From: Candidatus Micrarchaeota archaeon
GTDB taxonomy: Archaea > Micrarchaeota > Micrarchaeia > Anstonellales > Bilamarchaeaceae
Direction: 5' to 3'
Assembly (NCBI GenBank): GCA_030648615.1
Contig: JAUSHJ010000071.1
Span: forward strand, 830-64,829
DNA: 64,000 bases
In this document: one piece after another, positions 27,287 through 27,618 of the stretch
How positions within the stretch are numbered: the stretch's first letter is position 1
Layout: each line of letters starts with the position of its first letter
The notes under the pieces: model-generated
What the model saw: only the letters and a program-made list of their open reading frames with translations
The model's database searches: none
What the model was told of the DNA's origin: nothing
Translations under genes and position numbers: made by a program

Positions 27287-27386
27287 TGCAGGGATGGCGG
27301 TCCGATTGAACAGCTGTTCAATTCCCGCCAAGTTGTTTCACAACTCGAGTCCCTTTCATTCATTACACTCATTGCAGGGATGGCGG
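27287..27386 (+). repeat. 14-bp direct repeat of the tRNA 5' end flanking a hairpin cassette
   Basis: TGCAGGGATGGCGG at 27287-27300 and 27373-27386; between them ATTGAAC-AGCT-GTTCAAT and AGTTG-TTTCA-CAACT. Confidence 0.8.
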
Positions 27387-27618
27387 AGCGGTCAAACGTG
27401 CTGGATTCAGGGTTCAGTGCCCTAGCGGCTACGCAAGTTCGATTACCCATTTTTGGACTTTTGTCCTTCTTATGGGCAAAACTGGGTATCCCAACGCAAT
27501 TGTTGCTGATGCAACAATGCGCCTATTGTTCGAAACATCGAACAATCAGGAAGCCCATGCGTCAAGACTCCAAACTCGCGACGCTGGACTGAAGGCTACG
27601 AAAATCTTGCTCCCTGCA
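27374..27618 (+). tRNA. trnL-CAG: tRNA-Leu(CAG) with a 161-nt intron at position 59/60 (27444-27604)
   Basis: Acceptor stem GCAGGGA/TCCCTGC; anticodon arm CTGGA-TTCAGGG-TTCAG; long variable arm; T-stem GCAAG/CTTGC. TTCG (27438-41) pairs with intron CGAA (27599-602), leaving an AAT bulge (relaxed BHB). Spliced length 84 nt; CCA not encoded. Confidence 0.9.

Follow-up and report, generated by a model that had tools for sequence, protein, structure and literature searches.

Positions 27374-27618 of the 64-kb window (the whole stretch of DNA analysed here, on contig C44 of a genome that we label G000; other G-numbers denote related genomes) raise the question of whether a tRNA-Leu(CAG) gene whose T-loop is broken by 161 nt can still give rise to a tRNA. 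The genome is a Micrarchaeota MAG of 1.65 Mb in 76 contigs, with 36% G+C and about 90% completeness. As read from its sequence, the segment is most likely a working tRNA-Leu(CAG) gene carrying an enzyme-spliced T-loop intron. Exon 1 (27374-27443, 70 nt, tRNA positions 1-59; this and all other features of the gene are on the plus strand) comprises the 5' strand of the acceptor, the D-arm, the anticodon arm with the anticodon CAG at 27408-27410 (assigned from the ARAGORN cloverleaf and the sequence), a long variable arm, the 5' strand of the T-stem and T-loop positions 54-59. It is followed by a BHB-type intron of relaxed hBH form (27444-27604, 161 nt, tRNA position 59/60) and by exon 2 (27605-27618, 14 nt, tRNA positions 60-73), which supplies T60 (also the third base of the 3' bulge), the T-stem 3' strand CTTGC, the acceptor 3' strand TCCCTGC and the discriminator A73, with no CCA encoded at its 3' end. 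In silico removal of 27444-27604 left an 84-nt tRNA-Leu(CAG) with a long variable arm that was accepted by ARAGORN, and the predicted junction of the joined exons reads ...GCAAGTTCGAT/TCTTGCTCCCTGCA, i.e., ...GTTCGAT/TCTTGC.... Every element that the original prediction had described, from the tRNA-Leu(CAG) interrupted by a long T-loop intron to the 161 nt inserted at 59/60 (27444-27604), was found where it had been placed. We infer from these features that the intron would be excised, and the exons ligated, at the RNA level.

In its unspliced form, the gene went undetected by ARAGORN, which called zero tRNAs across the 64-kb window, and Rfam searches at gathering scores returned nothing across the same window, the tRNA model included; at E<=10, the interval 27100-27900 gave a noise match only. 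The suspicion that standard finders may miss this gene was, as regards ARAGORN and the Rfam tRNA model, justified. Several other readings of the locus were rejected. A split or permuted tRNA gene is ruled out by the two exons, which are collinear on one strand, in order and 161 nt apart. The short ORFs present (27380-27592 and 27472-27741 on the plus strand, 27205-27450 on the minus strand) had no Pfam match at E<=0.1. No group I or group II ribozyme was matched in Rfam (gathering scores in the window, E<=10 for 27100-27900), and such an identity is also disfavoured because the insert, at 161 nt, is too short. A leader motif, CATTC(G/A)TT(A/C)CACTCAT, which is not TATA-box-like, directly precedes several tRNA-Leu genes, both in G000 and in G010 (window 27353-27372; C54:2460-2478; locus L005 on G010:C12).

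The exon side of the splice motif displays exact BHB geometry, as had been claimed. The T-stem forms the outer helix h, with GCAAG at 27433-27437 pairing with CTTGC at 27606-27610; the central 4-bp helix H is made of TTCG at tRNA positions 54-57 (27438-27441) and CGAA (27599-27602); and the 3' bulge AAT (27603-27605) contains the 3' splice site within its 3 nt. The intron accordingly ends in CGAA followed by the two A residues that open the 3' bulge (27599-27604), an arrangement present in the MFE fold. Folding of the 245-nt precursor (z=-5.2) recovered the acceptor stem, the T-stem, the stacked TTCG/CGAA helix and the 3-nt AAU bulge, and the intron folded alone was more stable than any of 200 shuffles (z=-6.9). 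The 5' splice site lies in a bulge formed by A58, T59 and the first intron base (A-T/T, 27442-27444). On this side, the intron-intron helix h' of the strict hBHBh' motif is missing (h'=0 in the BHB scan); its place is taken by a local 5' hairpin (27445-27488) on the 3' flank, which in family members begins at about intron base 2, and the two helices next to the 5' bulge flank it on its own strand alone. By its predicted pairing the motif is of the relaxed hBH (bulge-helix-loop) class, in keeping with the weak intron-side helix for which it had originally been called relaxed. Since there is a T at each of the two junctions, the splice register could be either 59/60 or 60/61, a one-base ambiguity.

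Comparison of this motif across related introns gave further evidence. In a set of 17 T-loop introns the T-stem and helix H were 100% paired, a figure that is partly circular in that the set was gathered by a scan requiring pairing, so that covariation alone is informative: intron base n-5 changes in step with tRNA position 57, the pair being G57:C in three of three introns (this gene included) and A57:U in 14 of 14. All 17 introns examined also end in YGAA plus 2 nt. As a check free of the motif, exact hBH geometry was found in six of eight T-loop copies collected by sequence homology alone.

Interrupted tRNA genes are the rule in this genome. Eight tRNAs score above the Rfam cut-off in the whole assembly, and therefore most tRNA genes must be interrupted. 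We carried out a SPLITS-like scan in which candidate BHBs (a 4-bp helix plus h or h') delimiting introns of 11-300 nt outside long ORFs were spliced out, one or two at a time, before running ARAGORN; the scan is not exhaustive, and tRNAs with at least three introns or with irregular motifs (e.g., Lys on C51 and the C54:51073 locus) escaped it. It recovered the present intron at its exact coordinates (C44:28273-28433) and disclosed 59/60 introns in at least 12 tRNAs, with lengths of 21, 31, 43, 46, 60, 92, 94, 95, 102, 110, 161 and 214 nt, and the 161-nt intron is thus not exceptional within this genome. Among the leucine tRNAs, tRNA-Leu(UAG) carries a 95-nt intron at 59/60 that is clearly homologous to that of tRNA-Leu(CAG), and tRNA-Leu(CAA) carries a 60-nt intron at 59/60 plus one in the anticodon loop. 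With eight Rfam tRNAs at about 90% completeness and at least 12 tRNAs bearing 59/60 introns, the cell must splice such introns to live. tRNA genes with at least three introns were also noticed on C32 (minus strand, about 15100-15313), at C51:22150-22520 and at C53:8758-8970, and the 214-nt T-loop intron in one of them belongs to the same family and has a two-hairpin module of its own. Moreover, the D-loop and the T-loop of tRNA-Lys(CUU) each contain a family intron, and tRNA-Gln(CUG) is interrupted in the same two loops.

An intact tRNA-Leu(CAG) elsewhere in the genome, together with the lack of a spliced product, had been named as what would refute the prediction. No second tRNA-Leu(CAG) was found by genome scans allowing zero, one or two introns, nor by BLAST with exon 1, in an assembly about 90% complete whose missing 10% could hold another one. 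CUG accounts for 8.6% of the Leu codons. Being the sole copy is no proof of function, because tRNA-Leu(UAG) could read CUG by wobble.

Further evidence came from orthologues, for which we drew on 40 related genomes. The tRNA-Leu(CAG) genes of G038, G021 and G014 have no intron, and the spliced G000 product aligns with these intact genes without gaps across the junction. In three other genera, the 59/60 site is occupied by introns of very different lengths: 39 nt in G020, with a perfect hBHBh' motif (h=5, h'=5) formed by TTCA/TGGA and GTTTCC/GGAAAC; 87 nt in G010, which has an additional 143-nt intron at 37/38; and 97 nt in G004. These sequence comparisons support a spliceable T-loop intron in a tRNA-Leu(CAG) gene that would be functional.

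The enzymes that such splicing would call for are encoded in the genome. An EndA on C32 (391 aa, three-unit) matches the ARMAN-2 EndA (4FZ2) with E=6e-136 and, as read from that alignment, conserves Y236, H251 and K282 and the ASL motif GTYK with K161, residues known as the catalytic triad and the ASL lysine (PMC3488258). On these sequence grounds, it is a broad-specificity EndA of the epsilon2 type, and its nearest protein relatives are all from Candidatus Micrarchaeota or Bilamarchaeaceae MAGs. The genome also encodes RtcB (E=4e-152). A second EndA paralogue of alpha type (163 aa, C50:16775-17023, minus strand, outside the window) has M. jannaschii EndA 1A79 as its best PDB match (E=7e-11). 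To our knowledge, ARMAN-2 is described as having the epsilon2 EndA only.

We regard it as highly probable that the locus is a single tRNA-Leu(CAG) gene whose 59/60 BHB intron is spliced by proteins, derives from an intron family and has been lengthened by a 63-nt repeat. In the precursor, the T-stem would act as the outer helix h, and TTCG of the T-loop (54-57) would pair with the CGAA lying six to three bases before the intron 3' end as the 4-bp central helix, leaving the 3' splice site in the 3-nt AAT bulge and the 5' splice site in the 3-nt single strand between the central helix and the local intron hairpin. The epsilon2-type EndA would cut both sites, RtcB would ligate the 70-nt and 14-nt exons into the 84-nt tRNA and, probably, RtcB would circularise the intron as well. 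The presumed ancestor is a family of introns of about 90-100 nt occupying the T-, D- and anticodon loops of many tRNAs in the lineage, and the entry of a 63-nt two-hairpin repeat at 27492-27554 would have brought the present copy to 161 nt. Two points weigh against cleavage as described: the 5' splice site has no canonical h' helix, and the ARMAN-2 substrate tested had an intron of 13 nt and not one of 161 nt with a multi-helix junction.

The family was characterized with a profile built from five G000 introns, which found nine loci in the genome (E=7e-24 to 8e-9), all within tRNA genes. Its core is made up of a 5' hairpin whose outer stem covaries, the string TCCAAAA-CCATGMG-AAGAC and a variable 3' part ending in YGAA plus 2 nt, and the paralogous introns align independently with the present one in alignment A1 (10 sequences, this intron among them). 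From A1 we built a sequence-only covariance model, R1, which matches the present intron at C44:28280-28422 with E=1e-14, partly by construction since the intron is a training member. When 99 genomes of the GTDB family to which G000 belongs were searched, R1 had matches in 54 of them, representing 17 of 23 genera, and as many as 24 copies were counted in one genome. The flanks of 20 sampled matches were tRNA T-loops, anticodon loops and D-loops plus one 16S-rRNA-like context. The latter (L118, G023:C3:149952-150421, minus strand) has the element between GGGCCTAAAGCGTTCGTAGCCGG...GTGAAAG and ...GGGGCTTAACCC, and on this sequence the family is probably present as an rRNA intron too. In G004 the element forms tandem arrays inside tRNA loci. 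One of them (L095, G004:C6:18700-19647, minus strand) shows five 79-nt copies in tandem, placed in a tRNA intron where the contig ends and directly 5' of a T-arm bearing its own 59/60 intron; judging from the repeats, this intron apparently grew past 400 nt via tandem duplication.

All four of the stacked hairpins that had been predicted were found at their positions: TACCCA/TGGGTA (27444-27449 with 27483-27488), ATTGTTGC/GCAACAAT (27499-27518), ATTGTTCG/CGAACAAT (27525-27546) and GCGTC/GACGC (27559-27563 with 27580-27584), two of the four being perfect 8-bp hairpins. The conserved 5' family hairpin (27445-27488, nhmmer model positions 4-52) is composed of the outer stem ACCCA/TGGGT, a TTTTG...CAAAA stem and an inner GGAC-TTTT-GTCC. 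Over 31 copies, a regex-anchored count showed that the outer stem covaries, with 3.1 of 4 positions paired versus 1.5 of 4 when strands were cross-paired between copies. RNAalifold found no consensus structure on the raw A1 alignment, because MAFFT sets the covarying outer stems out of register. The 3' family core (27555-27598, model positions 49-89, also in alignment A1) contains CCATGCG-TCAAGAC, the GCGTC/GACGC hairpin and a linker. The nhmmer match to the intron accordingly came in two pieces, model 4-52 (E=9e-7) and model 49-89 (E=4e-6), about 55 nt apart.

Between the two pieces lies a 63-nt module (27492-27554) of the form CAACGC-ATTGTTGC hairpin-GCGCC-ATTGTTCG hairpin-CAGGAAGC, a dispersed palindromic repeat that is missing from the paralogous and orthologous family introns of A1. 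At least six copies with up to seven mismatches were found in the genome, one in a gene leader and others in intergenic hairpin arrays, and its second hairpin (27521-27552) is near-identical to GCCTATTGTTCGAATATCGAACAATCAGGA at window 4437-4466, the loop of the latter being 2 nt shorter. Perfect 8-bp hairpins are abundant genome-wide (902 versus 189 after shuffling), the commonest class being ATTG...CAAT. The length of 161 nt is consistent with a family intron of about 95 nt plus the 63-nt dispersed repeat inserted mid-intron, the direction of the event being deduced from the sequences compared. The module might instead be ancestral and have been lost from the shorter copies, an option that we keep because the 214-nt family intron on C32 has a similar module at the same point; insertion is favoured because the module is also dispersed outside introns. 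Another module, CTGGAATTCCGTCT-hairpin-AGGAAGGCTATC, is common to the T-loop introns of C32 and C61 (both minus strand), and a hairpin-less version of it, CTGGACTGAAGGCTAC, occurs at window 27584-27598. The sequence of these modules suggests that the T-loop introns are mosaics of several repeat modules.

The conservation of the core makes it necessary to consider that the intron, besides being spliced, is the precursor of a functional stable RNA, circular or guide-like, whose core (the 5' hairpin plus TCCAAAA-CCATGMG-AAGAC) would be under selection. Conservation of the core sequence in 17 of 23 genera, the compensatory changes in the outer stem and the strong fold of the intron (z=-6.9) agree with such a role, for which the archaeal tRNA-Trp intron harbouring a box C/D small RNA is a precedent (PMC4090602). 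However, inspection of A1 by eye disclosed no conserved C (RUGAUGA), D (CUGA) or H/ACA boxes, no Rfam small-RNA family was matched and the raw alignment yielded no RNAalifold consensus. The copies, moreover, tolerate large insertions and truncations (39-214 nt), and the tandem arrays resemble selfish repeats. We consider a stable RNA of this kind unlikely.

Very improbable, in our opinion, is that the locus is a pseudogene, i.e., that the T-loop has been hit by a repetitive or mobile hairpin element, no splicing takes place and tRNA-Leu(UAG), a tRNA that does exist here, reads CUG through wobble. It is true that the intron core is repetitive, relatives having as many as 24 copies in one genome and sometimes in tandem, that a further dispersed repeat lies inside the intron and that helix h' is absent. 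Nevertheless, the exons are intact and make a perfect cloverleaf, the central helix and the 3' bulge are in exact register with position 57 covarying, and orthologues of three genera have an intron at the same site whose splice geometry has been kept despite different lengths. Furthermore, tRNA-Leu(UAG) and most tRNAs of the genome have introns of the same kind, and therefore non-splicing would be lethal.

A different peculiarity is found upstream of the gene. A second copy of the initial 13-14 nt of the tRNA (TGCAGGGATGGCGG) lies 86 bp upstream (27287-27300 versus 27373-27386), and two hairpins separate the copies. In G020 there are two such upstream copies before tRNA-Leu(CAG) (L002, G020:C24); in G009 (L016, G009:C1) the upstream copy has a 3' acceptor strand of its own, with which it folds as a mini-helix (GCACAGG...CCTGTGCA); and G004 (L096, G004:C5) and G107 (L101, G107:C3) carry tandem repeats of AGCCCCGTCCGG plus an intron-family element. 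From its sequence, the 5'-end duplicate resembles the outcome of a target-site or tandem duplication near tRNA position 13. The "position-4 introns" that our scan proposed for G021, G040, G023 and G002 were discarded as ARAGORN artefacts with no real duplication. That the transcript starts at the upstream duplicate (27288-27300), with its first exon there and a second intron of 86 nt, is hardly credible: GCAGGGATGGCGG does occur twice, 86 bp apart, the TGCA palindromes give a 4-bp helix and a 4-bp h' if 27292 is taken as the last exon base, and similar duplicates precede Leu tRNAs in G020 and G009, but the downstream copy by itself supplies the whole 5' end and makes splicing unneeded, the helix comes free from the duplicated palindrome TGCA with h=0, no convincing BHB motif was found at the duplicate and the two-intron genome scan did not return the model.

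The reading of a single tRNA-Leu(CAG) gene with one protein-spliced T-loop intron has a close parallel in the same phylum. In vitro, the EndA of ARMAN-2 (Candidatus Micrarchaeum acidiphilum) cuts a relaxed hBH intron at 59/60 of pre-tRNA-Cys (Fujishima et al. 2011, PMC3239211), and Micrarchaeota are thus already known to have relaxed 59/60 introns that are cut by an epsilon2 EndA (PMC3239211; Hirata et al. 2012, PMC3488258), works that bear out the earlier statement that non-canonical positions and broad-specificity endonucleases are known in ARMAN archaea. Pre-tRNA-Cys(GCA) of ARMAN-2 and the present gene share the 59/60 site, the relaxed hBH motif, the epsilon2 enzyme, the T-stem as h, the 4-bp T-loop helix and the 3' bulge. 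In contrast, the present intron is 161 nt long instead of 13 nt, its interior consists of several hairpins and forms a junction at the 5' site, it belongs to a multi-copy homologous family and contains an inserted palindromic repeat, and its cleavage is predicted from sequence.

In Thermoproteales, homologous groups of tRNA introns have been described as spread by "intron transposition" (Fujishima et al. 2010, as cited in PMC3239211 and PMC4090602). As far as those citations go, both cases have related introns at different positions and in different tRNA genes, broad-specificity endonucleases and very many disrupted tRNA genes, whereas the present case concerns a DPANN phylum with an epsilon2 enzyme instead of an (alpha-beta)2 one, and a family that extends over 17 of 23 genera (54 of 99 genomes), forms tandem arrays and includes one rRNA-like site. 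The introns here are also much longer than the typical 12-25 nt; for archaeal tRNA introns in general, a 2014 review gives 11-129 nt (PMC4090602). The archaeal tRNA-Trp(CCA) intron, which hosts a box C/D small RNA (PMC4090602), resembles the present one in being a long (about 65-105 nt) structured BHB intron; it differs in its canonical 37/38 site and in its C/D boxes, which direct methylation of the host tRNA itself, none being seen in the T-loop intron. Finally, the 63-nt insert is like REP/BIME and MITE-like repeats in being short, dispersed, made of perfect hairpins and present in intergenic leaders and introns, and unlike them in its archaeal host and in being tolerated in an intron that must still splice.

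How the family could have reached so many sites is suggested by its 3' end. The 37/38 intron of tRNA-Leu(CAG) in G010 belongs to the same family, and its central helix uses TTCA of the anticodon loop (32-35), a tetramer identical to that of T-loop 54-57; in the D-loop copy of tRNA-Lys (C51), TCAG is paired with CTGA. Therefore, a YTGAAA(A) 3' end can build the splice helix at several tRNA sites, and we infer that this fit to several conserved tRNA sequences is the reason why the family could spread. We see it as possible, with a prospect somewhat short of even, that this is a Micrarchaeota-specific copy-and-spread BHB family which carries its own splice-site guide, would be spliceable at once wherever it inserts beside a helix and next to a sequence that the guide fits, and grows by uptake of palindromic repeats. 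The YGAA plus 2 nt would then be the guide that pairs with the near-universal T-loop TTCR and also with TTCA of the anticodon loop of tRNA-Leu(CAG), and the 3'-end CTGA would fit TCAG of the D-loop.

The gene itself is routine for the lineage; what is new is the family context and the inserted repeat of an unusually long intron. For annotation, standard finders see about eight tRNAs in this genome, and tRNA-Leu(CAG) and at least 11 others are hidden by T-loop introns of up to 214 nt, which exceed the range of the 2014 review (PMC4090602). For the enzyme, the sequence of the locus suggests that an epsilon2 EndA accepts a 161-nt multi-hairpin intron with its 5' site at a junction. A homologous, multi-copy intron with a captured hairpin repeat represents a tractable case for the gain and growth of archaeal tRNA introns and, if the family does copy and spread with its own guide, this would explain how, across 17 of 23 genera, it came to occupy three kinds of tRNA loop (T, D and anticodon) as well as an rRNA-like site, and would provide a concrete, testable route of tRNA intron gain in archaea.
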